Below are positions 21,936-57,301 of a stretch of DNA of 64,000 bases, one piece after another; the first letter of the stretch is position 1, and every line of letters starts with the position of its first letter. The stretch spans positions 897,872 to 961,871 of the forward strand of contig CBDBQC010000003.1 of the NCBI GenBank assembly GCA_965209205.1, written 5' to 3'. The position numbers were made by a program, and so were the translations under genes. Origin of the DNA: Dehalococcoidia bacterium. Lineage in GTDB: Bacteria > Chloroflexota > Dehalococcoidia > Bin125. Below the pieces are notes generated by a model. The model worked only from the letters and a program-made list of their open reading frames with translations, was not told the DNA's origin and ran no database searches.

Positions 21936-22910
21936 TCAGAGCATCGCCCGCAACTGCGCGCGCGTCACGTTCGCGCCCGACACCACCAGCACCACCCGCT
22001 TGCCCCGCAGACGGCCGCCGCCCGCGTCCGCCTCGTGCAGCGCCGCCGCCGTGCTCGCCGCGCCGGCCGGCTCGGCCAGCACGTGCGCCAGGTCGAGCAG
22101 CGTCCGCACCCCCTCCTCGATCTCCGTGTCCTCGACCAGCAGGAAGTCGTCGAGCGACGCCAGGATGCCCAGCGGCCAGGCGAACGCCCCCGCCGTCGCA
22201 AGCCCCTCGGCGATCGTCGTGTTGGGCCGCTGCAGGGGCGTCCCCGCCCGCCAGGAGTCGTGCAGCGCCGGCGCCTGCGCCGACTGCACCGCCCAGATGC
22301 GCGCCCCGTGCGCCAGCCCGTCGCGCACCGTCACCCAGCCGCAGCCGCCCGACCCGCCCCCCGCCGGCACGATCACGACCTCCGTCTCGGGCCCCTGATC
22401 CTCCAGCACCTCCAGCGCCGCCGTGCCCACCCCCGCCACCAGCCGCGGCTCGTCCGACGAGTGCACGTAGCGCATCCCGCGCTCGGCCGCGAACTCCTCC
22501 GCCGCCCGCCGCGCGTCGTCGTAGCGCGCCCCGCGCAGCGTCACCTCCGCGCCCAGCCGCCGCATCGACGCCACCTTGTCGGCGTTCGCCCCCTCCGGCG
22601 CGAAGACGTGCGCCCGCACCCCGAAGCGCTGGGCGGCGTACGCGATCGACTGCCCGTGGTTCCCCGTCGATGCGACCACCACGCCCGTCTCCCGCTCGGC
22701 CGCCGGCAGTTGCGAGATCAGGTTGATGCCGCCGCGCAGCTTGAAGACGCTGATCGGGTTGGCCGTCTCCAGCTTCAGCGAGACGTGCGCCTCGAGCCGC
22801 TCCGACAGCCCCGGGCTGTAGACCAGCGGCGTCGGCAACGGCACGTGCGCCGCGATGGTCGCCGCCGCGTCGCGCACGTCGTCGAGGGTGGGGGGTGTGG
22901 GGGAGGTCAT
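21936..22910 (-). CDS. PLP-dependent threonine/serine dehydratase (no regulatory ACT domain)
   Basis: SVFKLRGG...STGNHGQS...GGGSGGCG motifs of the beta-family PLP enzymes. Confidence 0.75.
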   Translation of the reverse strand: MTSPTPPTLDDVRDAAATIAAHVPLPTPLVYSPGLSERLEAHVSLKLETANPISVFKLRGGINLISQLPAAERETGVVVASTGNHGQSIAYAAQRFGVRAHVFAPEGANADKVASMRRLGAEVTLRGARYDDARRAAEEFAAERGMRYVHSSDEPRLVAGVGTAALEVLEDQGPETEVVIVPAGGGSGGCGWVTVRDGLAHGARIWAVQSAQAPALHDSWRAGTPLQRPNTTIAEGLATAGAFAWPLGILASLDDFLLVEDTEIEEGVRTLLDLAHVLAEPAGAASTAAALHEADAGGGRLRGKRVVLVVSGANVTRAQLRAML

Positions 22911-23111
22911 CGGTACAGGCTACGCGCGATGGCGACGGTGGGTTTTGAGGTTCCCGCTTTCGTGGCTCCCATCCCGCCCATTGTGCTGGCTTGTGCGGCG
23001 GGTCGCAGCGGACCAGGGAGCGTCGGAGGCCACGTGCGCAGGGATTCCGGCTGAGCCAGCCTTGTGTTGCCCCGAGGGCTCCCCTAGACTCCGCCTCAAG
23101 GTGGGCAGCAC

Positions 23112-25703
23112 ATGCGCAACGCATTTTGCGACAGCGACGATCTACACAACGAGGCGGATGTCGAGGCACTCTTCGCCGAGCCGCTGCTTCACGCGCTCGG
23201 CTACGCCGACAATCGAATCCGGCGGAAGGCTGCGATCCAGGAAGTCACACTCCCGACGACTGGTGCTCACGGGGAACGATACCGTCCAGACTACATTCTT
23301 CACGACTCGACCGGACAGTCAGTCGTTGTTGTTGATGCCAAGCACCCGGATGAAGACCCCAGCGACTACCGGTATCAGGTCACCGGTTACGCGCTCCTGA
23401 TCAACCAGCGCCACGAAGACAACCCACTCCGCTACTGCGTACTCACTAACGGACTCAAGACGGAGCTGCTGGAATGGGATCGTGACGGTCCAATCTTGGC
23501 ACTTCGATTCCAGGATTTCGATTCCGGCAATGAGGCTTTGACCGCACTCCGTTCTACCATAGGCTACGGCGTCTTCAACCAAGAACGGCAGGTCAAGGAC
23601 GTAAGACCAAACTACCACCGACCAACGATCAGTGAAATTATCGCGTCGTTCGCCGACGCCCACAACACGATCTGGAAGAAGGAGAAGATCGGTCCGACGA
23701 AGGCGTTTTATGAGTTGGCGAAGCTATTGTTCGTCAAGCTCCGCCAAGACCGGCTAATCCATGAGAAGATCGCGCAAGGGGAGCAGCCTCGCAGAGATGA
23801 CTTCTTCTTCACAGTCGACTGGGTCAGCCGGCAACCGACAGACAACCCGATCGCAGAACCGCTCTTCAGCGCCATTCAGAAGCAAATGGAGGCGGAGATC
23901 ATTGCGAAGGAGAAGAAGCGCATCTTCCTCTCTGGCGAATCGATCAACCTGCGACCATCGACGATCTTGGAGGTTGTGCGGACACTTGAGGAATCTGACC
24001 TCCATGGTATCGATGAGGATCTGAATGGCCGCATGTTCGAGACATTCCTGAACGCGACAGTGCGCGGCAGAGAGCTCGGGCAGTACTTCACGCCTCGACC
24101 AGTAGTCAAGTACATGACGAAGTCAGCTCGCCTGAGTGTCGTCAACCGTCAGTTGCCCCGAGTCATTGATGCATGTTGCGGCAGCGGCGGCTTCCTTATT
24201 GAAGCGCTCGCAATGTTGTCCCAAGCGATCCAGAGCAGTGCCCACCTTACGAACAAAGAGCAAGCTGAACTGCAAGCGCTGCTGGAGAGGGATACTCTCT
24301 ATGGCATCGAAGCGAACGAAGAGATCGGTCGTGTCGCCCGACTCAACATGTACCTGCATGGAGACGGCGGCAGCCGCATCTACATAGCGGATTCACTGGA
24401 CAAAGAGTTGGCCGGCGAGGAGGGCCTGGAGACCGAGCCCCGACAGCAACTCGATGAATTGCGCTCGCAGCTGATCGACAACGGTGTGCGTTTCGACGTG
24501 GCGCTGACGAACCCTCCGTTCAGTATGTCCTACTCCAAGAAGAAAACTGACGAACGGCGGATTCTCCAGCAGTATGCGATCGTCAGCAGCGATACCACGC
24601 ACTCTAACGTGCTGTTCCTGGAACGCTACCATGATTTGTTGGAGGAAGAGGGGGAGCTGCTCACGATCATAGACGACACTGTCCTCAATGGCGTGAATGC
24701 TGCCGAGTTCCGTCGCTTCATCCGCGACAAGTTCATAATCCGGCAAGTGGTGTCACTGCCATTCAATACGTTCTTCCGAGCGCAAGCCAATATCAAGACT
24801 TCCATGCTTCACCTTCGACGACGTCGGCCGGGTGAACGGCAAGGGGACGTCTTCATGGCGATCACGAACAACGTGGGACATGATGATAGCAAGCGCGACA
24901 CCCCACACCGTGACAATCTCCCCGAGGTCGCGAACCTGTTCACCGACTGGGACGAACACGGGGTTGAGCCCAATCTGTTCCGCGAGGCGGACTCCGACGA
25001 GCCGCTGAGTTGTCCACTGCAGGTCTTCGCTGTGCCAGCAGAGGAACTCAGCGCCGACCGCCTTGACGCCTTCTACTACGCACCGGAGTTGCGCAGGCTA
25101 CAGAGACGCTTGGAATCCCAGGCCGACGCTGCTGAGATCGTGCTGAGGACGGGTGCTGAGTTCACCTTGGTGCCGAGTTTGTCGAAGGCGCAGAACGAGG
25201 ACTTACGCGGCACGACTAGGCAATACATCGAGATAACGAGCGTCACGCGCGATGGTATGATCGTGATGCCAACGCAGGATCTCTTCGAGGAGTTGCCGAC
25301 TCGCGGCCAGCTCATGGTCGAGCCGAATGACGTGCTCTTCGCGAAGAACAACAGCTCGCGAGGCACAGCCGTACTCGTGCCGGAGTGGTTCAGTGGCGGG
25401 ATCGCCACGACCGGCTTCATCAACGTTCGGCCCGAGGACGAGGAGGAGGCTCTGATCCTATGGACCGTATTCCGATCGGAAGTCTGGCGGAAGCAGGTTT
25501 ACTACCTCGCGATCACAGCGAGTCAGCCGGAAGTGCGAGAGCATATCTTCCTCGATGAAATGCTCATCCCCTGGCCCGCGACAGAGGAGCAACGCACGAA
25601 GATAGTTGAGAGCGCGCGAGCCATGCTGCGAGCACGTGAGACCGAGAGGCTTGCCGCTGAGGAGAACCGGCGGACGCTCGATGACATGCTGGCCTCAGAC
25701 TGA
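23112..25703 (+). CDS. single-chain Type IIG (MmeI-like) restriction-modification enzyme: N-terminal PD-(D/E)xK (HsdR_N-type) nuclease, gamma-class N6-adenine methyltransferase, C-terminal target-recognition region
   Basis: N-terminus RPDYILHD...VVVVDAKHPDE (D...D-x-K nuclease motif, HsdR_N-like). Motif I VIDACCGSGGFLIEA; motif IV LTNPPFS; ~350-aa C-terminal region of TRD size. GC ~55% against a ~70% background. Confidence 0.7.
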   Translation: MRNAFCDSDDLHNEADVEALFAEPLLHALGYADNRIRRKAAIQEVTLPTTGAHGERYRPDYILHDSTGQSVVVVDAKHPDEDPSDYRYQVTGYALLINQRHEDNPLRYCVLTNGLKTELLEWDRDGPILALRFQDFDSGNEALTALRSTIGYGVFNQERQVKDVRPNYHRPTISEIIASFADAHNTIWKKEKIGPTKAFYELAKLLFVKLRQDRLIHEKIAQGEQPRRDDFFFTVDWVSRQPTDNPIAEPLFSAIQKQMEAEIIAKEKKRIFLSGESINLRPSTILEVVRTLEESDLHGIDEDLNGRMFETFLNATVRGRELGQYFTPRPVVKYMTKSARLSVVNRQLPRVIDACCGSGGFLIEALAMLSQAIQSSAHLTNKEQAELQALLERDTLYGIEANEEIGRVARLNMYLHGDGGSRIYIADSLDKELAGEEGLETEPRQQLDELRSQLIDNGVRFDVALTNPPFSMSYSKKKTDERRILQQYAIVSSDTTHSNVLFLERYHDLLEEEGELLTIIDDTVLNGVNAAEFRRFIRDKFIIRQVVSLPFNTFFRAQANIKTSMLHLRRRRPGERQGDVFMAITNNVGHDDSKRDTPHRDNLPEVANLFTDWDEHGVEPNLFREADSDEPLSCPLQVFAVPAEELSADRLDAFYYAPELRRLQRRLESQADAAEIVLRTGAEFTLVPSLSKAQNEDLRGTTRQYIEITSVTRDGMIVMPTQDLFEELPTRGQLMVEPNDVLFAKNNSSRGTAVLVPEWFSGGIATTGFINVRPEDEEEALILWTVFRSEVWRKQVYYLAITASQPEVREHIFLDEMLIPWPATEEQRTKIVESARAMLRARETERLAAEENRRTLDDMLASD

Positions 25704-25802
25704 GATCACCGCCAACTGTGTCGCGTTCGACCCCCGCGTGACTCCCCTTGAGACGCTCGCGTCTCCCCGGCTTGCGCCCAGCCTGGCCCATCCGCGACGC
25801 CG

Positions 25803-26324
25803 TCACCGGTACTTCCGGCGCTGCTGCTCCTGCAGGCCCGCGATGGTCTCCGCCGCGCGACCGTAGATGTCGGGCGGATCCCAGCCGTTCATGCCGGCGT
25901 AGGTGTCGATCTGGCTGCGATGGTGGATGTCGTGCTCCGTCATCAGCAGCAGCACGCGCCAGCCCGACATCGCGCCGCCGCTGTCGATCATCTCCACCTT
26001 GCGATGCAGCCACGCATCGGGCGTCTCCTCGAGCAGCGACCGCAGTCGCGCCGCGCTCTCCTCGAGCACCGGCAGCCAGCGCTCCTGCGTCGAGACGTCG
26101 GGCGGCTCGGGCGTGACCCAGCCCTCGCCGCGGTAGGCGCTGGCGAAGTACAGCCGCGCCGTCGCCATGTGCCCCACGAGGCCGTTGATGGTCCAGGCCT
26201 TCTCGCCCTCCCCCTGCGACGGCCGCCAGCCGTCGGCCTGCGGCGGCAGCGCCGCGACATCGCGGATCGCCCGCCGGTGCACGCCGCCGAAGTAGCGCAG
26301 GAACTCGTCGATCGAAGTCAGCAT
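25803..26324 (-). CDS. DinB-family (DinB_2) damage-inducible-like protein
   Basis: 173 aa, four-helix DinB/YfiT-like with a conserved His triad context (...GLVGHMATARLYFA...TEHDIHHRSQI). Confidence 0.6.
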   Translation of the reverse strand: MLTSIDEFLRYFGGVHRRAIRDVAALPPQADGWRPSQGEGEKAWTINGLVGHMATARLYFASAYRGEGWVTPEPPDVSTQERWLPVLEESAARLRSLLEETPDAWLHRKVEMIDSGGAMSGWRVLLLMTEHDIHHRSQIDTYAGMNGWDPPDIYGRAAETIAGLQEQQRRKYR

Positions 26325-26367: not shown

Positions 26368-27102
26368 TCACGAAAACAGTGCCCCCTGCCGCGTGCCCAG
26401 CGGCGTCTGCGTGGCCAATTCCGCTTCGGGGTCGAGGGCCAGGCAATCGGGGTCGTCGTTGCGCACCGAGTTCACCCGCCGCGAGACCGCCTCCCCCACC
26501 AGCAGCGATTCCGGGGCGGGACGCAGCAGCTCCCACACGACCTCCGGCTCGTTGCCCGGATACACCCATTCCGCCGCGTCGTCGGCGCTCAGGACGACCG
26601 GCATGCGGTCGTGGATCGGCGCGACCGTCGGGTTGGCCGCGGTCGTTAGGATCGTGAACGTGCGCCGCCAGTCGTCGTCGCCCGCCCGCCACGATTCGTA
26701 CAGGCCGGCCAGCAGGATCAGGCCGCCCTCGGGCCGGTGGAACCAGACCGGCTGCCGCGCCGACTTCGGCCCCGTCCATTCGAGGAAGCCGTCGGCCGGG
26801 ACGAGGCAGCGACGCCGCTTCTCCCACGCGGCCCGGTAGGCGCGCCGCCGCGGCACGTCCTCGGCGCGCGCGTTGATCTGCGCCCCGGCGCGCTTGGCGT
26901 CGGTCGCCCAGGTGTTGACCAGCCCCCAGCGGGCGGGCAGCGCCTGCCGCGCCTCCTGTCGCTCCCGCACGATGACGTGCGGCTGCGTGGGGGCGATGTT
27001 GTAGCGCGGCCGATGGCCGGTCGCCTCGATGGCGGCCGGGTCGACGCCCAGCGCCGCCGCGATCTCCGCCACCCCGGCCGTGAGCGTGAATCGAGCGCAC
27101 AT
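26368..27102 (-). CDS. SOS-response-associated peptidase (SRAP/YedK, abasic-site processing protein)
   Basis: N-terminal MCARF... (catalytic Cys2), ...RYNIAPTQ...; full-length SRAP family similarity. Confidence 0.8.
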   Translation of the reverse strand: MCARFTLTAGVAEIAAALGVDPAAIEATGHRPRYNIAPTQPHVIVRERQEARQALPARWGLVNTWATDAKRAGAQINARAEDVPRRRAYRAAWEKRRRCLVPADGFLEWTGPKSARQPVWFHRPEGGLILLAGLYESWRAGDDDWRRTFTILTTAANPTVAPIHDRMPVVLSADDAAEWVYPGNEPEVVWELLRPAPESLLVGEAVSRRVNSVRNDDPDCLALDPEAELATQTPLGTRQGALFS

Positions 27103-29930: not shown

Positions 29931-32174
29931 CTACGTCGTCAGGACGTTGATCTGGTAGGCCTTGTGCATGTCGGCGATCTGCGCGGCGCCGAGCGGCCAG
30001 TCGATATTGGCCGCCGTCGCGTGGTACTGGAAGCGCTCCGTCAGGTAGATGAAGCCCGCCCGCTGGTAGTGCGCGACGTAGAGGTCCTCGATCGCCGCGG
30101 CGCGGTCGTCGGCGTTGACGGCCGACTTCGTGCGCGCGCGCATGTCCGCCAGGTCGTCGTGCGGCGCCAGCGAGTAGGTGCCGCCCGGCGTCGGCGCGAT
30201 GTGCGCGGCGATCATGATCTCCGGCTCGAAGCAGGCGCAGTTCTGCATGAAGAAGAGCCCGGCCCCCTCCGTTTCTGAAGCGGCGGCGTTGCGAGCCGTG
30301 GCGAAGAACTCGCCGGTCGGGTACGACTGCATTTCGAGCTCGACGCCGACGGCCGCCAGATCCTGCTGCAGGACCAGCGCCACCGCGGGGTCGGTCGGGA
30401 TGAAGTCCACCGAGAAGTGGAACGGCGTCGTGAACCCGTCCGGGTAGCCGGCCTCGGCGAGCAGGGCCCGGGCAAGGTCCGGGTCGTACGCGTACGGCCC
30501 GATCGCCTCCAGCGCTTCCCGCGGGTAGAACGCGGCCCCGGCCCAGGCGCCGTACGACACGCCCTCCTGCCCGGTCATCAGGTTGTCGATGATCGCCTGC
30601 TTGTTGATCGCGTGGTTCAGGGCCTTGCGCACCCGCTCGTCCCGGAAGGGATTCGGGATGCCGTTGACCTCCTCGGTCAACAGGTTCGGGAGCAGGTACT
30701 GGTTCGGGTTGCCGGCCCAGCCCAAACCGACGTTGAAGTCCGGGTCGTCCCGGATCGGTTCCACGACGTCCGGGGTCAGGGCGTACGCGACATCGATCTC
30801 GCCCGCCTCCATCCCGGCGATGCGGGAGAGCGGCTCCGGCCGCACGAGGTGGACGTGCCGCCGGGTGGACGTCGCCCCGAGCGGCGCCGGCGTGGGCGAC
30901 CACGGCAGGTGGTAGTCCTCGTTGCGCTCGAAGACGAAGTCGGTGTCTTCGGTGTGGCTGACGAAGCGCATGTTCCCCGTGCCCATGGATGAGGCGTCGA
31001 CGGCCGCGTCTCCCCGCTCCTCGGTGTCCCGCTTCGACATCGTGTAGATGTTGCCCAGGTAGGCGCCCGAGATCGTCGCGTCGGGTTCGTGGGTATTGAT
31101 CGTCCAGTGCAGCTTGTCGGTCTGGCCATAGCCCGCCCAGTGGTGGGCGCCCTGCTGCGTGCGCGCGCTGGCCCAGCCGCCGGGGTGGTCGGACGTCTCG
31201 CCGCCCTGGTGGTACTCGGCGATGTTCCCCACCCGCTCGTACGTGAAGATCATGTCTTCCGCCGTCAACTGCTGGCCGTTGTGGAAGAACACGTTGTCCT
31301 TGACGGTCAGGGCCCAGGTCGTGTCATCGGGGAGTTCCCACTGGACCAGGATCCCCGTGGGATTCCCGGTGTCCGGATCGAAATCCACGGGCCGGTCGAA
31401 CACGCTGTGGGAGTTCTGGTAGTTGACCTGGCTGCCGGAACGATGCGGATCGAGACCGCCGTTGTCGGCCGCCAGGGCGAGCCGCAGGGTGGCCTCCGTG
31501 TCGATCGTCCCGGCGGCGGCGGACGGCGCGTCCTCCTCCGCGGCCATGGTGGCGGCGTCGGCGGCCTCGCGGGCCGCGTCGGCGGCCTCTTCGGCCGCCG
31601 AGACGGCGGCCGCGGCGGTCTCGGCCGCGGCAGCGGACGCCTCCCCCGCGGCGGCAGCGGCGGCAGCCGCGGCATCGGCCGCGGCCTGGGCGGCGGCGGC
31701 AGCGGCGGCGGTGTCCTCGGCGCCCGCCTCGCGGGCGGCGGCGGCGGCGGCCTCGGCGGCATCGGCGGCCGCCTGCGCGACGGCGGCGGCGCCCGCGTCG
31801 CCCGCGGCCCGGGCGGCCTCGGCAGCATCGGCAGCCGCATCGGCGGCCGCCTGGGCGGCTGCGGCCGCCTGTTCGGCGTCATCCGACGCCGCGGCTTCGG
31901 CCGCCAGGGCGGAGGCCGCCTCGGCGGCTTCGGCGGCGCGGCCCGCAGCCTCGGCGGCGTCGCTCGCGGCGGATGCCGCGGCAGCGGCGTCGCCCGCCGC
32001 CGCGTCGATCGCCGACGTATCGACGGCGGCCGGCGCGGCGTCATCGTCGTCGTCGCCGCAGCCGACGAGCGCGAGCCCAGCCGCTCCAACGCCGGCTTTG
32101 GCGCTGGCTCCCAACATGGTGCGACGCGAGATCTTTCGCTGTCGCAGGGTGTTCCAATACTTCGGCGTACTCAT
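29931..32174 (-). CDS. orphan paralogue of the family-5 ABC substrate-binding lipoprotein, with a ~205-aa Ala-rich acidic linker
   Basis: First ~60 codons and the upstream leader are nearly identical at DNA level to the 5259-7667 gene. Same RR/lipobox N-terminus and Ala/Glu/Asp tract; the SBP_5 domain is roughly 40-50% identical. No adjacent permeases; convergent with the ECH genes. Confidence 0.8.
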   Translation of the reverse strand: MSTPKYWNTLRQRKISRRTMLGASAKAGVGAAGLALVGCGDDDDDAAPAAVDTSAIDAAAGDAAAAASAASDAAEAAGRAAEAAEAASALAAEAAASDDAEQAAAAAQAAADAAADAAEAARAAGDAGAAAVAQAAADAAEAAAAAAREAGAEDTAAAAAAAQAAADAAAAAAAAAGEASAAAAETAAAAVSAAEEAADAAREAADAATMAAEEDAPSAAAGTIDTEATLRLALAADNGGLDPHRSGSQVNYQNSHSVFDRPVDFDPDTGNPTGILVQWELPDDTTWALTVKDNVFFHNGQQLTAEDMIFTYERVGNIAEYHQGGETSDHPGGWASARTQQGAHHWAGYGQTDKLHWTINTHEPDATISGAYLGNIYTMSKRDTEERGDAAVDASSMGTGNMRFVSHTEDTDFVFERNEDYHLPWSPTPAPLGATSTRRHVHLVRPEPLSRIAGMEAGEIDVAYALTPDVVEPIRDDPDFNVGLGWAGNPNQYLLPNLLTEEVNGIPNPFRDERVRKALNHAINKQAIIDNLMTGQEGVSYGAWAGAAFYPREALEAIGPYAYDPDLARALLAEAGYPDGFTTPFHFSVDFIPTDPAVALVLQQDLAAVGVELEMQSYPTGEFFATARNAAASETEGAGLFFMQNCACFEPEIMIAAHIAPTPGGTYSLAPHDDLADMRARTKSAVNADDRAAAIEDLYVAHYQRAGFIYLTERFQYHATAANIDWPLGAAQIADMHKAYQINVLTT

Positions 32175-32345
32175 GATCGGTTCCTTTCCGGGAACTACCG
32201 TTGGTCCCCCCGGGGGACCGTCGGGCTGGTGAGCACGCGCAGTATGGCACATCCAATAGAGACTCCCCCCCCCACCCCCCCTATGTCAAGTAAGAAGGAA
32301 ATTATGGGGTTATCCACGGTATTTGCAAAGTTATCCACAGGATTT
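32175..32345 (-). promoter_or_regulatory. Conserved 5' leader/promoter module of SBP paralogue 2, with a C9-A-C7 tract and two consensus DnaA boxes
   Basis: Leader hairpins identical to copy 1 (GTTCCCGGAAAGGAAC; GGTCCCCCCGGGGGACC). An AT-rich patch carries TTATCCACG (~32309) and TTATCCACA (~32331) as direct repeats 13 nt apart. Confidence 0.5.
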
Positions 32346-38152: not shown

Positions 38153-38977
38153 TCACTCGGTGAACCCAGGGAGACGCCTTTGCCCCGTGGGCTCCACCCG
38201 ACTGATCTTTCTGAAGAAATCCGTGCCGCGGGGATTCTTGCTGGCGAAGACGAGGTGATAGATGGTCGATCGCTTCGTGTTCAGGATGCGGCTGTCGTCA
38301 TCGACGTGCGAGTAGTTGATGCCCTTGAGTTGGCGTTCATACATGTCGAGCAACGCGCGGGTGATCGATGCTGTGGGCTCATCGCGGAGCGCGAGGTACT
38401 CGTCAGTGCCCATGAAACGCTCAAGGTCCGATCCCTTCCCGAAGCCGGGTTGATAGAGGAACCGCTTGGCGAAGTTCGTCATGAATGTGACGATCAGGTC
38501 GAGTGGGATCTCCGCCGAGAGCCTCCGGACGGACTCGAAACTGATCTGATATCCGAATGGATCGAGGACCGCCAGGCCGAGGGTTCCGCCGCCAGGCCCG
38601 CGGGGAAAGAGGAACTCGCGGGCTCTCGCCGGTGCCTCGTTGCAGTCCAGGCACTCGACTCGCACTCGCCCAGGATCCTCGTCTGCGGTCCTGGCCTTCA
38701 GCGCTTCGACGACAGCCGGGTCGGAGTCGCTCAGGAACACCTTGGCGAACGGGGCCTTCACTGCCAGCAGCGCCGAGCCGCGTGATTCGTCACCCGAGTC
38801 CTTGTTGATGTTGATTCCCGGCCCAGCGAAGAGATCCGCGTAGACAAGGTCCGTCCACCTGTCCTTCATGCCCTTCGTGAAGATGTCGATATAGCGCTCG
38901 ACGTAGAAGAGCTTGTCTTCGCTCCACGGCTCGACCTCATGCGCGGCATGGCCGTCCGAGGCCTCAACCAGCGTCAC
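38153..38977 (-). CDS. TcmP-like 'three-Cys-motif partner' protein (uncharacterised)
   Basis: 274 aa. GTG start overlaps the stop of the upstream DUF5131 gene (GTGA). No recognisable catalytic family; contains a DLFAGPG Gly-rich motif. GC ~57%, clearly below background. Pairing with a DUF5131/three-Cys protein is the defining genomic context of the TcmP family (from memory of TIGRFAM/NCBI family descriptions). Confidence 0.5.
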   Translation of the reverse strand: MTLVEASDGHAAHEVEPWSEDKLFYVERYIDIFTKGMKDRWTDLVYADLFAGPGININKDSGDESRGSALLAVKAPFAKVFLSDSDPAVVEALKARTADEDPGRVRVECLDCNEAPARAREFLFPRGPGGGTLGLAVLDPFGYQISFESVRRLSAEIPLDLIVTFMTNFAKRFLYQPGFGKGSDLERFMGTDEYLALRDEPTASITRALLDMYERQLKGINYSHVDDDSRILNTKRSTIYHLVFASKNPRGTDFFRKISRVEPTGQRRLPGFTE

Positions 38978-39711
38978 GCTTGCGCTCCCACCGCCGGCAG
39001 CTCATCCCACGTTCGACCATCGAGCACACGGCCCGACGCCTTCTTGCCGCGGCGCACGCCCGCCTCATCATGGGCGCCCCACTGCTTGAAGAAGAACGGC
39101 ACGCCCGCCGCCGCGCACTGATCCCGCACCGAGGTCGCCCACGACAGCTGCATCGGTCGTGCGCCGGGACCGCTCTCGCCGCCGACGATCACCCAATCGA
39201 TCTTCGCGAGGTCCAGGTCCAGCGGCCCCAGCAACGGCTCGCAGGACAGGAACCGCACGGCCGCCGGCATCGCCCGCAACTCCGCGATCCGCGACGTCCA
39301 GCGCTGGTTCTCGACCGACACGCCCATCCACACGTTGTCGGGCCAGGGCAGCCGATCGGCCAGCGCACGCGCCCGCTCCGGGCGCTTCGTCAGGACCTGG
39401 AAGACGTGCCAGTGCGCCCGCCGCATGACGTCGAATACCTCCGCGACGTACTCGTCCGGCACGCCCTCGTGGAACAGGTCGCTCATGCTGTTGACGAAGA
39501 TCACGCGCGGCCGCTTCCAGGCCAGCGGCTGCTGCAACCGCTCCGGACGCAGCGTCAGGTCGAAGCCGGGCTCGTAGGGATGGCCGGGCACGCCGCGGAA
39601 TCGCTCCGCGAACGTCTCCGCGTAGCAGTGGGCGCATCCGGGCGACACCTTGGTGCAGCCCGTGACGGGGTTCCACGTCATCTGGCTCCACTCGATCTTC
39701 GTCTTGCCCAT
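38974..39711 (-). CDS. DUF5131 family protein (phage Gp37/Gp68-like, three-Cys motif)
   Basis: MGKTKIEWSQMTWNPVTGCTKVSPGCAHCYAETFAERF... gives a C-x7-C-x2-C cluster near the N-terminus, a hallmark of Gp37/Gp68 (PF07505) proteins. RBS GGAGGA. Confidence 0.65.
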   Translation of the reverse strand: MGKTKIEWSQMTWNPVTGCTKVSPGCAHCYAETFAERFRGVPGHPYEPGFDLTLRPERLQQPLAWKRPRVIFVNSMSDLFHEGVPDEYVAEVFDVMRRAHWHVFQVLTKRPERARALADRLPWPDNVWMGVSVENQRWTSRIAELRAMPAAVRFLSCEPLLGPLDLDLAKIDWVIVGGESGPGARPMQLSWATSVRDQCAAAGVPFFFKQWGAHDEAGVRRGKKASGRVLDGRTWDELPAVGAQA

Positions 39712-39732
39712 CGCGGATCCTCCCCGGGACAA

Positions 39733-39744
39733 GAACATACGTTC
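39733..39744. promoter_or_regulatory. Cheo/LexA-type SOS box GAACATACGTTC
   Basis: Perfect GAAC-N4-GTTC inverted repeat (context aAGAACATACGTTCCt), ~20 nt upstream of the DUF5131 start and ~137 nt upstream of the divergent lhr start. A TTATCCACT DnaA-box-like 9-mer lies ~25 nt further on (~39767). Coordinates +/-2. Confidence 0.5.
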
Positions 39745-39880
39745 CTGTCGTGCGTCTGTCCACATGTTATCCACTACTGCCGACACCGTATCCTGTCGTG
39801 GTCGTCCCGCTCGATCGTCGCCCTGCGACCATGGGCCGCGCAGGTCCCCCGACGCCTGCTACAGTGACCGACTAGAACAC

Positions 39881-54302: not shown

Positions 54303-54773
54303 ATGCGCTGGCTGGCCGCCGTGACGAGCGTCGAGATCGACCGGCCGATTGACGACGTGTGGGCATTCGTGACGGACATCGGGAACATGCCGCACTGGGT
54401 CGACGGGGTGTCGGAGCCGGCGCTGACGCCGGGGGCGGATGCTGCGGCGTCACCCCTGGAGGCCGGGACGCCGTTCACGAGCCGCTACACCTACGCCGGC
54501 CGCACCCACACGATGCACTACGTCGTGACCGACCTGGAGCCGCCCACCCACTACGCGCTCAAGTCCACCGAGGGCCCCTACCCCGTCGAACTGCGGCTGC
54601 GGCTGTCGTCGGGCGCCGACGGCGCGACGACGCTGGAGAAGACGACCCGCGCCGGCTCCGACGGCGTCGTCACGAGCGCGATGTTCCTGCTGTTCGGCCC
54701 GCTGCTGCGTCGCATGATGCGCCGGCAGATGTCGAAGGAGCTCGCCCGCTGCAAGGCGGCCGTCGAGGGCTGA
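54303..54773 (+). CDS. SRPBCC (START/polyketide-cyclase-like) family protein
   Basis: ...IDRPIDDVWAFVTDIGNMPHWV...; RBS AAGGAGTGG. Confidence 0.65.
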   Translation: MRWLAAVTSVEIDRPIDDVWAFVTDIGNMPHWVDGVSEPALTPGADAAASPLEAGTPFTSRYTYAGRTHTMHYVVTDLEPPTHYALKSTEGPYPVELRLRLSSGADGATTLEKTTRAGSDGVVTSAMFLLFGPLLRRMMRRQMSKELARCKAAVEG

Positions 54774-54782
54774 GCGCGCGCC

Positions 54783-54833
54783 GACCTCACCCCCTGGCCC
54801 CCTCTCCATCTGAAGCGACGGAGAGAGGGAACG
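54783..54833. repeat. degenerate copy of the palindromic repeat family at an island boundary
   Basis: GACCTCACCCCCTGGCCCCCTCTCCATCTGAAGCGACGGAGAGAGGGAACG (terminus plus a decayed hairpin). Confidence 0.55.
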
Positions 54834-55144
54834 TGACCGCGAACGGGCGGGGCGTGCGGCGAGGCTCGCAGCGAAGTGGGCAGCGTGGGGGGTACCATCG
54901 CGGGGTGAGGTCCACGCGTGCGACCTCAAACCACCGATACTGGACCAGTCATGGCTGTCGACGCACGAATGGACGAATACGTACGGCGGGCGCAGCCGTT
55001 CATCGAGTCCGGAGACTTCGACGAACAGGAGGCGAAGTACAAGCTGGATGGCGTCGTCGCGTAGGGTCCCTGGTCGCACCACTGGGCGGTCGCGCAGTGA
55101 TCGCGCGAAGGTACGGGGAGAGATCAGAAGCCTCTAGACTCTCA

Positions 55145-55762
55145 AGGATGGCCGAAGAACAGAACTGGTGGTGCACTCTCGACGCACGATGGGCGGAGAC
55201 TCGTCGACTGCCGTCCGTCGCGTATACCTGTGGCTACTGTGGCCGTGCCGTCGCGTCAGAACGGGGGTGGTACACCGAAGCTATGCTCGCGACCATCCGC
55301 GTGTGCCCCCAATGCAATGCCCCAACGTTCTTCAGCGCTCAGGGCGCGCAGCACCCGGGCCCGCTCCTTGGTGGGAAAGTCGCGAGCCTCGCCGACGATG
55401 TCCGGGGCATCTACGACGAGGCGCGGAATGCTCTGACCGTCGGGGCAGCCACCGGAACGGTGATGCTCTGCCGCAAGATACTGATGCACGTCGCGGTCGA
55501 TATGGGGGCCAACGAGGGTAAGAGGTTCCAGGAATACGTCGAGTGGCTCGCGGACGAAGGGTGGATTCCGAAGGGTGGTCAGCGCTGGGTCGACTTCATC
55601 CGGCGGCGCGGGAACGAGGCCAACCACAAGCTCCCCGACATAACAAGAGAAGATGCCGAGGGGATTCTGAAGTTCACCGAACTGTTGCTTCGGAATGTCT
55701 ACGAGCTACACGCCTTGCTGCCTCCGCCCCCCGATGCTGGGCCTTCAGAGGATGGCGGATGA
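55145..55762 (+). CDS. zinc-ribbon plus DUF4145 domain protein
   Basis: N-terminal CGYCGR...CPQCN (four Cys in two CxxC pairs). C-terminal ILMHVAVDMG...FQEYVEWLADEGWIPKG...FIRRRGNEANHKLPDITREDAEGILKFTELLLRNVYEL matches the DUF4145 core. Convergent with the R-M pair. Start coordinate +/-3. Confidence 0.6.
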   Translation, partial: RMAEEQNWWCTLDARWAETRRLPSVAYTCGYCGRAVASERGWYTEAMLATIRVCPQCNAPTFFSAQGAQHPGPLLGGKVASLADDVRGIYDEARNALTVGAATGTVMLCRKILMHVAVDMGANEGKRFQEYVEWLADEGWIPKGGQRWVDFIRRRGNEANHKLPDITREDAEGILKFTELLLRNVYELHALLPPPPDAGPSEDGG

Positions 55763-55811: not shown

Positions 55812-56363
55812 CTAGTCCGGCTCGATGAAGATGACCTTGACCGGGAACGTCGGAAACTGCCGCTGCAGGCCGATGATGTCGGTCACGAGCATCTCGCCCC
55901 GTCCTACACCCGACGACATTTGGGCTGCGAGGCGATGTGACGGGACGATTTCGACGCCAACATCGGCCTCATCCTGACGGTAGAAGTACTCCAGTTTCGC
56001 CATGTCGTAGAACATCGCGAAATACTTGCCAAGCTGCACCTCGACCAAGACTCGATCACGCGCGAAGTCGATCTGCTTGCGACCGGTCCGCAACCGGGAC
56101 GTGTCCCAGTCGGGAACGTTCGGCTTCACGGATCGCTTCAACTCCTGGAAGCCGCGCGCGTTGAACTCGGAGCGGAGCGCAGAGTTGATGGCCGTCGGAT
56201 CGAAGAGCATGCGACCTTTCTTCGTCTTCTCCTTGCTCTTCTTGGTCCGGAAGTCGCTGCCGATCGCCGCGATAACTTCGTGGATCGCCGCGTCGATGTC
56301 CGGGAACCGCGACCGGAGGATCTCGCTGCCGCCGAGATGCGAGTACTCGTAGACGGCCTTCAT
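55812..56363 (-). CDS. Type II restriction endonuclease, BglII/BstYI family
   Basis: 183 aa. MLFDPTAINSALRSEF... and DFARDRVLVEVQLGKY parallel BglII LIFDPVGTNQYIKDEL... and DFGKRDTLVEVQFSNY. ATG overlaps the methyltransferase stop (ATGA). GC ~58%. Confidence 0.7.
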   Translation of the reverse strand: MKAVYEYSHLGGSEILRSRFPDIDAAIHEVIAAIGSDFRTKKSKEKTKKGRMLFDPTAINSALRSEFNARGFQELKRSVKPNVPDWDTSRLRTGRKQIDFARDRVLVEVQLGKYFAMFYDMAKLEYFYRQDEADVGVEIVPSHRLAAQMSSGVGRGEMLVTDIIGLQRQFPTFPVKVIFIEPD

Positions 56364-57301
56364 GGCCCGCCTGGAGGACTGGCAAGCTCCAGCCGGAGCA
56401 GGCTGTCAACCTGGGGGGGCTGGTACACAGCTCTCGTCATGGGCCTGGTCCGCAGCCTACCTTCGTAAGCCTCCTTGGCTCGTTTCTTCCCGATCTCGTA
56501 GTACTCGGCCTCGATTTCTGCACCGACGGCGCGGCGCTGATGCCGCAGGGCGCCGGCGGCGGTCGAGGCGACGCCCATGAACGGGTCAACGACGAGATCA
56601 CCGATTCTTGTCATGCTCAAAACGAGACGCTCAACCAGCTCGATAGGGAACTGGCAGGGGTGAGGCGTCTTCTCAACGTGGTTGTTCTTCACGTTCGGGA
56701 ACACCCAGACATCGCCGGGGTTCTTTCCCAGCGGGTTCCCCGACAGTTGCCCCGCCCGGGGACCCTTGAAGTGGCGCTTATTCGGGTACTTCTGCGGCGT
56801 CCGAATGGGGTCGACGTCGAACAGGTAGTCGTCCCCCTTGGTGAACCAATTGATGGTCTCGTAGCGGCCGGAGAGTCGCTTGGTGCAGTGCAGCCCGTGC
56901 TCGAAGTGCCAGACGATCCGGTTCCGCATCTTGAGTCCGAGTTCCCGGAACACGGGGAACAGCAGCGCATCGAGCGGCACGATCTCGCCACGGTCGACGT
57001 GGTTCCCGACCTGCCAGCAGATCGACCCGTCGTCGGCTAGAACACGGACGGATTCCGTGATGACGGCGCGCTGGAACTCGACATAGTCGTCCAGCGAAGA
57101 GCGGTCCTCGTAGGGCTTGCCGATGTTGTACGGCGGGGAGGTCATCACGAGGCGCGCAGCCCCGTCGGGCAGCTGAGCGAGGAGTTCCAGGCAGTCGCCG
57201 TTGAAGAACGAGAAGTCGGCCTCAGGGTCGAAGTCGTCGGCGAACCGATAGGCTGCCCTCACGGGCACTTCCGCAGGTGGCTGCATCCTGAACTCCGGCA
57301 C
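56360..57301 (-). CDS. beta-class DNA methyltransferase, probable N4-cytosine (m4C) specificity, cognate to the BglII-like endonuclease
   Basis: Motif IV TSPPY precedes motif I VVDPFMGVASTAAGA (beta-class order). SPPY is typical of N4C methyltransferases (BglII and BamHI methylases are m4C). Start is GTG, or the internal ATG at ~57286. Confidence 0.75.
   Translation of the reverse strand: MPEFRMQPPAEVPVRAAYRFADDFDPEADFSFFNGDCLELLAQLPDGAARLVMTSPPYNIGKPYEDRSSLDDYVEFQRAVITESVRVLADDGSICWQVGNHVDRGEIVPLDALLFPVFRELGLKMRNRIVWHFEHGLHCTKRLSGRYETINWFTKGDDYLFDVDPIRTPQKYPNKRHFKGPRAGQLSGNPLGKNPGDVWVFPNVKNNHVEKTPHPCQFPIELVERLVLSMTRIGDLVVDPFMGVASTAAGALRHQRRAVGAEIEAEYYEIGKKRAKEAYEGRLRTRPMTRAVYQPPQVDSLLRLELASPPGGP

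Follow-up and report, generated by a model that had tools for sequence, protein, structure and literature searches.

The locus considered here is a single gene, at positions 23112..25703 on the forward strand of a 64,000-nucleotide stretch of contig CBDBQC010000003.1 from a Dehalococcoidia bacterium (the window). It raises the questions of what kind of restriction-modification (R-M) enzyme the gene encodes, how the gene came to lie where it does, and whether it has any connection with the genes next to it. An earlier account made from the DNA letters, referred to below as the sequence-only reading, had assigned the product to the MmeI (Type IIL) group. The analysis reported here, in which coordinates are positions in the window and residue numbers refer to the 863-aa protein, points instead, with a probability that we put at about 80%, to a self-contained Type IIG R-M enzyme of the BcgI/BsaXI lineage that carries half of a specificity (S) subunit fused to its C-terminus and appears to have been acquired horizontally.

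Nuclease, methyltransferase and specificity modules in one chain

The open reading frame (ORF) is uninterrupted, begins with ATG and, judged from domain, homolog and fold evidence, encodes a single-chain enzyme of the layout R~gammaM~TRD, in which a nuclease (R), a gamma-class methyltransferase (M) and a target recognition domain (TRD) are joined. The ORF is beyond chance, with full-length homologs at E = 0 and 50-71% identity; these proteins, of 859-900 aa, occur in Chloroflexota, Nitrospirota, Methanothrix and Asgard archaea, and their public labels read only ‘N-6 DNA methylase' or ‘type I restriction enzyme M protein'. An exact look-up of the 863-aa sequence itself in a public assembly collection returned no record.

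Residues 1-135 (23112..23516, +) form a PD-(D/E)xK nuclease domain of the HsdR_N type, which is identified by profile, by alignment with BsaXI, by conservation and by the structural model, and which displays E18, E55, P59-D60, D75-A76-K77 and Q89xxxY93, the last of which we take to be the counterpart of the QxxxY motif in Type I HsdR nucleases. The isolated N-terminus scores 19.2 bits against HSDR_N_2 and 18.4 bits against HSDR_N, both slightly below the Pfam cutoffs, and domains of the HSDR_N type are annotated, or score above cutoff, in several homologs. In the AlphaFold2 model the nuclease domain has an alpha-beta core. The alignment pairs D60, D75 and K77 with D90, E105 and K107 of RM.BsaXI, residues that mutagenesis has shown to be essential in that enzyme (PMC11997821); the counterparts expected of an RM.BsaXI-type nuclease are therefore present, that of a fourth residue, E73, being uncertain. 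A multi-helical connector follows (residues 136-300; 23517..24011, +), its helices spanning residues 141-292 in the model, and aligns with the connector of RM.BsaXI.

The central part of the chain, residues 301-615 (24012..24956, +), is a gamma-class N6-adenine methyltransferase with motif I at D353ACCGSGGFL362 and motif IV at N467PPF470. Pfam N6_Mtase matches residues 302-615 at 5.1e-34, Eco57I is also matched, and motif I precedes motif IV (NPPF), the TRD lying C-terminal to both. The NCBIfam and PADLOC collections group the methyltransferase with Type I-like and MAD2-like profiles, all at scores far below the equivalog cutoffs. The sequence-only reading had held that top matches to Type I HsdM, together with an intact HsdM N-domain, would speak against it; the methyltransferase and the TRD are indeed Type I-like, which tells against it in part, although Pfam at E <= 0.01 detected no HsdM N-domain in the 863-aa protein.

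The remainder of the protein comprises a single TRD of the Type I HsdS type (residues 616-822; 24957..25577, +) and a long C-terminal helix (residues 823-863; 25578..25700, +) that is the equivalent of the coiled-coil conserved region (CR) 1 of HsdS. A phmmer comparison (6e-12) aligns the C-terminal ~250 residues with TRD1 and CR1 of 5ybb_D/3okg_A, a Type I S subunit, and the motif ‘IPWPxxEEQR' at the junction of TRD and helix reads LIPWPATEEQRTKIV in the window protein versus LIPLPPLEEQRRIV in HsdS. The NCBIfam profile for the MAD5 S subunit matches the C-terminus at 1.9e-8. The HsdS homology of this region is seen by phmmer and by profile instead of by Pfam Methylase_S. Two-TRD S proteins and a domain swap in one homolog, both described below, also delimit the TRD. 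In the AlphaFold2 model the helix occupies residues 825-861 (37 residues), and the CR1 to which it aligns lies at ~165-191 of 5ybb_D. By homology, then, the C-terminus is one HsdS-type TRD plus a coiled-coil helix, that is, a predicted ‘half-S'.

A PD-(D/E)xK nuclease fused to a gamma-class N6-adenine methyltransferase in one chain is the hallmark of Type IIG enzymes, and in this respect the sequence-only reading, which had proposed a single-chain Type IIG protein with nuclease, N6-methyladenine (m6A) methyltransferase and C-terminal TRD, is borne out by the motifs, the N6_Mtase match and the BsaXI and HsdS homology. The motifs it quoted are present, at numbers that differ by one or two residues from its own (the true positions are P59-D60, D75-A76-K77, D353 and N467). 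Its C-terminal region of ~350 aa proves to be one of ~250 aa (616-863), since Pfam N6_Mtase ends only at residue 615.

A BsaXI-like scaffold with the layout of HaeIV

Comparison with proteins of known structure consistently returned the same enzyme. The best match by sequence in the PDB is the Type IIB enzyme RM.BsaXI (7.6e-34; residues 44-573 of the query against 75-624 of the chain), and a profile of 65 homologs gives RM.BsaXI at 5.2e-45 over positions 13-582, which take in nuclease, connector and methyltransferase. A Foldseek comparison of the AlphaFold2 model built from the alignment, a confident one (pLDDT 86.4, pTM 0.85), gave BsaXI as the top match (6e-23), and after it came Type I M subunits, BpuSI (fifth), DrdV (seventh) and CamA. 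With BsaXI and BcgI the window enzyme thus shares, over ~570 homologous residues, a nuclease, a helical connector and an HsdM-like gamma-methyltransferase. It differs from them in its specificity module, which is fused and consists of a single TRD and CR helix, whereas BsaXI and BcgI have a separate S subunit; the chain is also shorter, at 863 aa, than that of BsaXI, which has 916 aa in addition to S. In the notation of Loenen et al. (PMC3874165), BcgI and BsaXI are organized as ‘2 R~gammaM + S1~S2' and MmeI as ‘1-2 R~gammaM~[TCCRAC]'.

Relatives of the window enzyme show how such modules are exchanged. On a contig from a viral collection (L091), an 883-aa homolog is 41% identical over residues 2-598 and has an unrelated C-terminus, which indicates a putative swapped specificity domain. 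At another locus (L093), the R-M protein has 656 aa, and its ORF overlaps a following one of 478 aa in which there are two Methylase_S stretches, an arrangement that is the classical ‘RM + S' of BcgI and BsaXI. A search with the C-terminal 248 residues alone, covering 1.84 billion cluster representatives, found the TRD in the same place in about ten clusters, of proteins 860-890 aa long, and gave double matches to many proteins of 380-500 aa (~450 aa), as expected of two-TRD S subunits. Together, L091, L093 and the two-TRD S matches place the scaffold, as far as homology can tell, in a Type I-derived, Type IIB-related lineage in which the specificity module is either separate, with two TRDs, or fused, with one. 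Such single-TRD fusions on a BsaXI-like R-M scaffold have a wide distribution that takes in uncultured Chloroflexota, archaea and phage-like contigs.

The two TRDs found in BcgI/BsaXI-like Type IIB systems, which cut both DNA strands to either side of a bipartite site, are not present in the window enzyme, in which one TRD and one CR helix are fused (616-863). Its layout, R~gammaM~[single TRD] without accessory genes, is that of HaeIV, which is written ‘2 R~gammaM~[GAY]', recognizes the symmetric sequence GAY N5 RTC, cuts on both sides and is presumably a homodimer (PMC3874165). By published architecture (PMC3874165, PMC4027205), each combines nuclease, gamma-methyltransferase and a single TRD in its one polypeptide and lacks companion genes; both are also predicted to need homodimerization. 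The window enzyme is a HaeIV layout on a BsaXI-like scaffold, and HaeIV is the sole characterized architectural analogue found in the literature searched. There is a further likeness to the cores of Type I M2S and ‘Type 1 1/2' enzymes and to homodimeric gamma-methyltransferases such as M.AhdI and M.DrdI, namely an HsdM-like catalytic domain combined with an HsdS-type TRD that is followed by a coiled-coil helix; in the M.AhdI/M.DrdI type, this half-S logic leads to symmetric bipartite sites. Unlike these Type I-like cores, the window protein has its own nuclease, holds everything in one chain and lacks a motor-containing HsdR.

Proposed mode of action and alternatives

In the mechanism that we propose, the C-terminal TRD would read a short half-site, and the adjacent methyltransferase, which depends on S-adenosylmethionine, would flip and N6-methylate an adenine within it. 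At an unmethylated site the N-terminal PD-(D/E)xK domain, tethered through the helical connector, would cut at a fixed distance. With a single nuclease site and a single TRD per chain, a second TRD would have to come from a second chain, and the two chains may pair through their C-terminal CR helices like two half-S subunits. The C-terminal helix is a candidate dimerization element on the reasoning of Loenen et al. 2014 (PMC3874165), according to whom C-terminal helices mark dimeric gamma-methyltransferases. The sequence recognized by such a pair would be symmetric and bipartite; the pair would cut to either side of it and methylate it on both strands, and this double methylation would make a companion methyltransferase unnecessary. 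That the window enzyme acts in this way, as a homodimer on a symmetric bipartite site, is the reading that we prefer, and by analogy with the enzymes above we hold its chances to be about even.

Several observations sit uneasily with the BcgI/BsaXI assignment or with the homodimer. The equivalent of BsaXI E73 could not be mapped with confidence, the aligned residue being Q43 or E44 at a variable position, and neither the ‘knob' nor the ‘paddle' of BsaXI is seen in the secondary-structure profile of the window protein. Pfam Methylase_S gave no match to the isolated C-terminus even at E <= 10, and the TRD is unusually conserved among the top homologs (44-55% identity), which is atypical of rapidly diversifying specificity domains. 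Most single-chain Type IIB enzymes have the arrangement TRD1-CR1-TRD2-CR2 (PMC11997821), as against the one TRD found here. Kinship with HaeIV would be one of architecture as described rather than of compared sequences, and a predicted C-terminal helix is also a property of MmeI-type enzymes, so that the helix does not discriminate a fixed from a loose dimer (PMC3874165).

It could be argued that the enzyme works in the manner of MmeI, as a monomer that reads a continuous asymmetric site, methylates one strand, requires two sites and cuts on one side about two helical turns away. The one chain with one TRD and no companion methyltransferase is as in the MmeI family (PMC2731913), and the MmeI-like mode would explain the lack of a companion equally well. 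BpuSI and DrdV, which rank fifth and seventh in the fold comparison, are single-TRD Type IIG enzymes, and the boundary between the groups is porous, the Type IIB enzyme RdeGBIII having been reported to possess an S domain like those of BpuSI and MmeI (PMC11997821). The resemblance to the MmeI family is, however, limited to this generic, solitary R~gammaM~TRD organization without a flanking second methyltransferase. Membership of that family, among the marks of which are modification of a single strand and one-sided cleavage at 20/18, was defined by similarity to MmeI along the whole length at a BLAST E < 1e-20 (Morgan et al. 2009, PMC2731913), and no full-length similarity is detectable in the window protein, the methyltransferase and TRD of which are of the Type I kind. 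The Pfam domains MmeI_N, MmeI_hel, MmeI_TRD and MmeI_C are absent, and MmeI_Mtase reaches 21.8 bits against a cutoff of 27 and covers only residues 350-415, the region of motif I. Neither MmeI nor BpuSI nor DrdV was found among PDB chains by sequence or by profile, in contrast with the 5e-45 for BsaXI; the TRD and CR helix are homologous in sequence to TRD1-CR1 of Type I HsdS, and in close relatives of the R-M module the specificity is supplied by a separately encoded S subunit with two TRDs. We therefore view an MmeI-like mode as a tentative and rather doubtful alternative. With the affinity to BsaXI and Type I enzymes, and with the assignment to MmeI/Type IIL failing as BsaXI emerges as the best PDB match by sequence, profile and fold, methylation of a single strand with cleavage ~20 nt away should not be taken as the default expectation; recognition of a symmetric bipartite site with cleavage to either side of it, in the manner of HaeIV, is at least as likely. 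The expected phenotype is thus corrected to include, beyond an MmeI-type single-strand motif with a 20-nt reach, a bipartite and possibly symmetric m6A motif with two-sided excision.

A different possibility is that the protein is an orphan or regulatory DNA methyltransferase, its nuclease-like N-terminus being inactive or serving only to bind DNA. This would fit the public annotation of the family, which names only the methylase, the sub-threshold HSDR_N matches of the window copy, and the serine that it has at position 70, where 64 of the 65 sequences keep proline. It should be emphasized, however, that in the conservation alignment of 65 full-length homologs, drawn from bacteria and archaea, P59, D60, A76, K77, Q89 and Y93 are invariant (65/65), as are the glycines of motif I and N467PPF, position 75 is D or E in every sequence, and E18 and E55 are near-invariant. 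The nuclease clearly appears from this pattern to be under purifying selection for catalysis, which argues against an orphan methyltransferase, as do the alignment of its residues with those essential in BsaXI and the recurrent occurrence of the family as solitary, context-free genes of low guanine-plus-cytosine (GC) content, a distribution typical of selfish R-M genes. Gene decay was considered for the window copy and rejected; it deviates at three conserved columns (median 2, maximum 6 among the homologs), and with deviations not in excess it looks functional. The window enzyme therefore probably cuts DNA, and an orphan role seems very unlikely.

It is more improbable still that the protein belongs as a subunit to a system of several genes, of the Type I, MADS, BREX or a similar kind, with its other components encoded elsewhere. 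The idea is prompted by the top NCBIfam and PADLOC matches, which include Type I methyltransferase profiles and, as the best NCBIfam profiles, MAD2 of MADS for the M region (1.2e-46) and MAD5 for the S region; PADLOC mad2 covers residues 13-614. The scores fall far short of the cutoffs, with 159 bits versus 720 for MAD2, 33.6 versus 400 for MAD5 and 41.5 versus 242.75 for TIGR00497 hsdM. No mad, helicase or HsdR gene lies nearby, and membership of MADS, BREX and Type I systems was rejected on scores and gene context. Indeed R, M and S modules are all present in the protein already. Genes for a helicase, an ATPase, an S subunit or any other defence function are absent from the ~9 kb on either side, and no partner gene is conserved at any of 11 other homolog loci.

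Type IIG genes have already been catalogued in thousands, with 1779 putative genes counted in 2145 genomes (Loenen et al., PMC3874165), and one more is not expected to surprise the specialist. Once cloned, however, a member of this family could serve structural studies, or tools of the 2b-RAD type, as an additional homodimeric Type IIB enzyme.

Probable replacement of a resident gene at a variable slot

Within ~9 kb on each side of the R-M gene lie housekeeping genes. They encode a PNPOx protein, a pterin dehydratase, a PALP enzyme and three enoyl-CoA hydratases, besides an iron-siderophore-type ABC transporter, a solute-binding protein and the DinB-fold and SRAP proteins. In the same interval there is no HsdS, HsdR or other methyltransferase gene, and the whole 64-kb window holds no second ORF for a related methyltransferase or TRD, in agreement with the solitary status given to the gene by the sequence-only reading. 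The composition of the gene sets it apart from these neighbours. Across ~23000-25750 the GC content, in 500-nt windows, is 0.54-0.61 versus 0.72-0.77 in both flanks; the gene as a whole has a GC of 0.575, the flanks about 0.73, and its bins are the lowest-GC 1-kb bins of the window. GC at third codon positions (GC3) is 0.714 versus 0.93-0.98 in four neighbour genes. The drop in GC and the departure in codon usage noted from the letters alone are therefore real.

Relatives of the locus were found by anchoring on the adjacent PALP protein across GTDB species genomes. Two of them, the Dehalococcoidia metagenome-assembled genomes OZ244557.1 (L007, PALP 96% identical) and CBDHGH010000003.1 (L008, 94%), are close, their flanking DNA being ~87-93% identical to the window on both sides (about 91%). 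Homology to both ends at window positions 22935-22937, ~26 nt 5' of the start of the PALP gene, and resumes at 25760 in L008 or 25788 in L007, just past the stop codon of the DinB-fold gene. In the same slot the relatives have a gene whose product measures 855 aa in L007 and 1130 aa in L008; the two genes are related to each other, lie in the orientation opposite to that of the R-M gene and have a near host-like GC (~0.64-0.77). The L008 protein has clear Pfam leucine-rich repeat (LRR) domains, and that of L007, although without a Pfam match, aligns to it. These genes for a fast-evolving LRR-repeat protein, at 7437-10004 in L007 and 6591-9983 in L008, are equivalent in place to window positions 22937-25787. 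By parsimony, a cassette of ~2.85 kb with the R-M gene appears to have replaced the LRR-protein gene in the lineage of the window, between two conserved host genes. No remnant of the displaced gene was found in the window by tblastn, and no R-M homolog occurs elsewhere in the loci of the 80 PALP-anchored genomes.

The resident gene has features of its own. The L007 protein contains its C-terminal module twice, and the two orthologues are only 32-46% identical in spite of flanks that are ~90% identical, so that the slot is a variable locus in its own right.

The cassette extends a little beyond the gene that it carries. Its 5' flank (22937..23111, +), which lacks homology to L007 and L008, contains the Shine-Dalgarno-like AAGGTGGG at 23098-23105, 6 nt 5' of the ATG, and presumably the promoter of the R-M gene; a sigma-70 consensus scan upstream of the gene found none, and terminator-like matches did not exceed the shuffled expectation. 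Its 3' flank (25704..25787, +) reaches to where the homology of the relatives restarts (25760 in L008, ~25788 in L007).

Homologs at 11 other loci lie in 11 different contexts. Their neighbours include IS1595, the gene for ribosomal protein L25 and a phage tape-measure gene; other copies lie within a sugar/amino-acid operon, between lutB and lutC, or in an island with SIR2-HerA and insertion sequence (IS) elements. At all 11 the GC of the homolog is 2 to 24 points lower than that of the flanking DNA. Mobilisable actinobacterial plasmids carry more distant full-length homologs (34% identity), and homologs are also found on a phage-like contig. Horizontal acquisition of the R-M gene, as the sequence-only reading had suggested, is strongly supported by these comparisons, namely by GC and GC3, by the unrelated gene in the slot of L007 and L008, by the low-GC homologs in varied contexts at 11 loci and by the phage-like and plasmid homologs. 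The locus is a clean case of cassette replacement, the incoming R-M gene being solitary and the slot a variable one with conserved genes on either side.

Two of the homolog loci merit separate description. In one (L004, 5663-8716) the homolog is inserted in a lactate-utilisation operon, precisely at the junction of the lutB-like and lutC-like (LUD_dom) genes, and in another (L170, 1-14402) it is part of a defence/IS island that also holds SIR2_2 and HerA-like genes as well as the gene for an AddB-like PDDEXK_1 protein.

Downstream of the R-M gene, on the opposite strand, are a gene of the DinB family (25803-26324, -; PF05163), which has the DinB/YfiT fold and is not DNA polymerase IV, and a SRAP gene (26368-27102, -; PF02586); Pfam thus upholds the earlier identification of both. 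The two are syntenic in L007 and L008, neither of which has the enzyme, and the juxtaposition is therefore coincidental, as the sequence-only reading had thought probable; no DinB-fold or SRAP-type neighbours occur at the 11 other homolog loci. The adjacent ‘damage-tolerance' genes are thus unrelated to the enzyme.

It counts against acquisition that no mobility gene, tRNA or flanking repeat that would explain the insertion was found. Target-site duplications and terminal inverted repeats are absent from the cassette borders, and the 64-kb window contains no tRNA genes and no Rfam families at gathering score. A comparison of the flanks with those of seven homolog loci, for conserved non-coding DNA that moves with the gene, yielded only chance matches of 11-12 nt. 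Entry by homologous exchange through the conserved flanks, or by illegitimate recombination, is possible.

A direct repeat of 19/20 nt, CCGCGATGGTC[G/T]CCGCCGCG, occurs at 22850-22869 and 25838-25857 and brackets the cassette. It is the only notable pair of repeats at the borders. One copy is internal to the PALP coding sequence and the other to that of the DinB-fold gene, at 50-85 nt beyond the homology breakpoints, and both encode AAxTIA peptides. As a mark of insertion the repeat was rejected, being away from the breakpoints, in DNA of 75% GC and encoding similar peptides; it is probably due to chance.

A far-fetched idea is that the family is a self-mobilising, homing-like gene, the two-sided cutting of which, at a conserved site, could make the breaks that drive its insertion through recombinational repair; if so, the R-M enzyme would promote its own spread into new sites. 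Behind this idea are the conservation of the full length, including the TRD, across bacteria and archaea, the solitary nature of the gene and its GC below that of the host. To these may be added the clean insertion between or within housekeeping operons, or in place of a resident gene between conserved flanks, and the lack of a recombinase, tRNA or repeat signature at the window slot. We consider it highly improbable.

Other features of the window

About 30 kb from the R-M gene, the window contains an independent second system, a BglII-like Type II R-M pair (55812-57301) in a GC dip of 0.62. It consists of a BglII-like restriction endonuclease (55812-56363, -; PF09195, 4.6e-13) that overlaps the gene of an N6_N4_Mtase methyltransferase (56360-57301, -; PF01555, 1.4e-49), and it adjoins a 467-aa DUF4145 protein (54359-55762, +). 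Another GC dip (0.635), at 38153-39786, comprises the gene for a DUF5131 (phage Gp37/Gp68-like) protein (38974-39786, -; 1.5e-108) and an adjacent ORF of 274 aa without a Pfam match; this segment may be a prophage remnant or a small island. The SBP_bac_5 solute-binding protein encoded at 29931-32252 (-) has an N-terminal extension of ~250 aa that is of low complexity and rich in Ala, Glu and Asp, and within its gene, at 31500-31999, the local GC rises to as much as 0.86.

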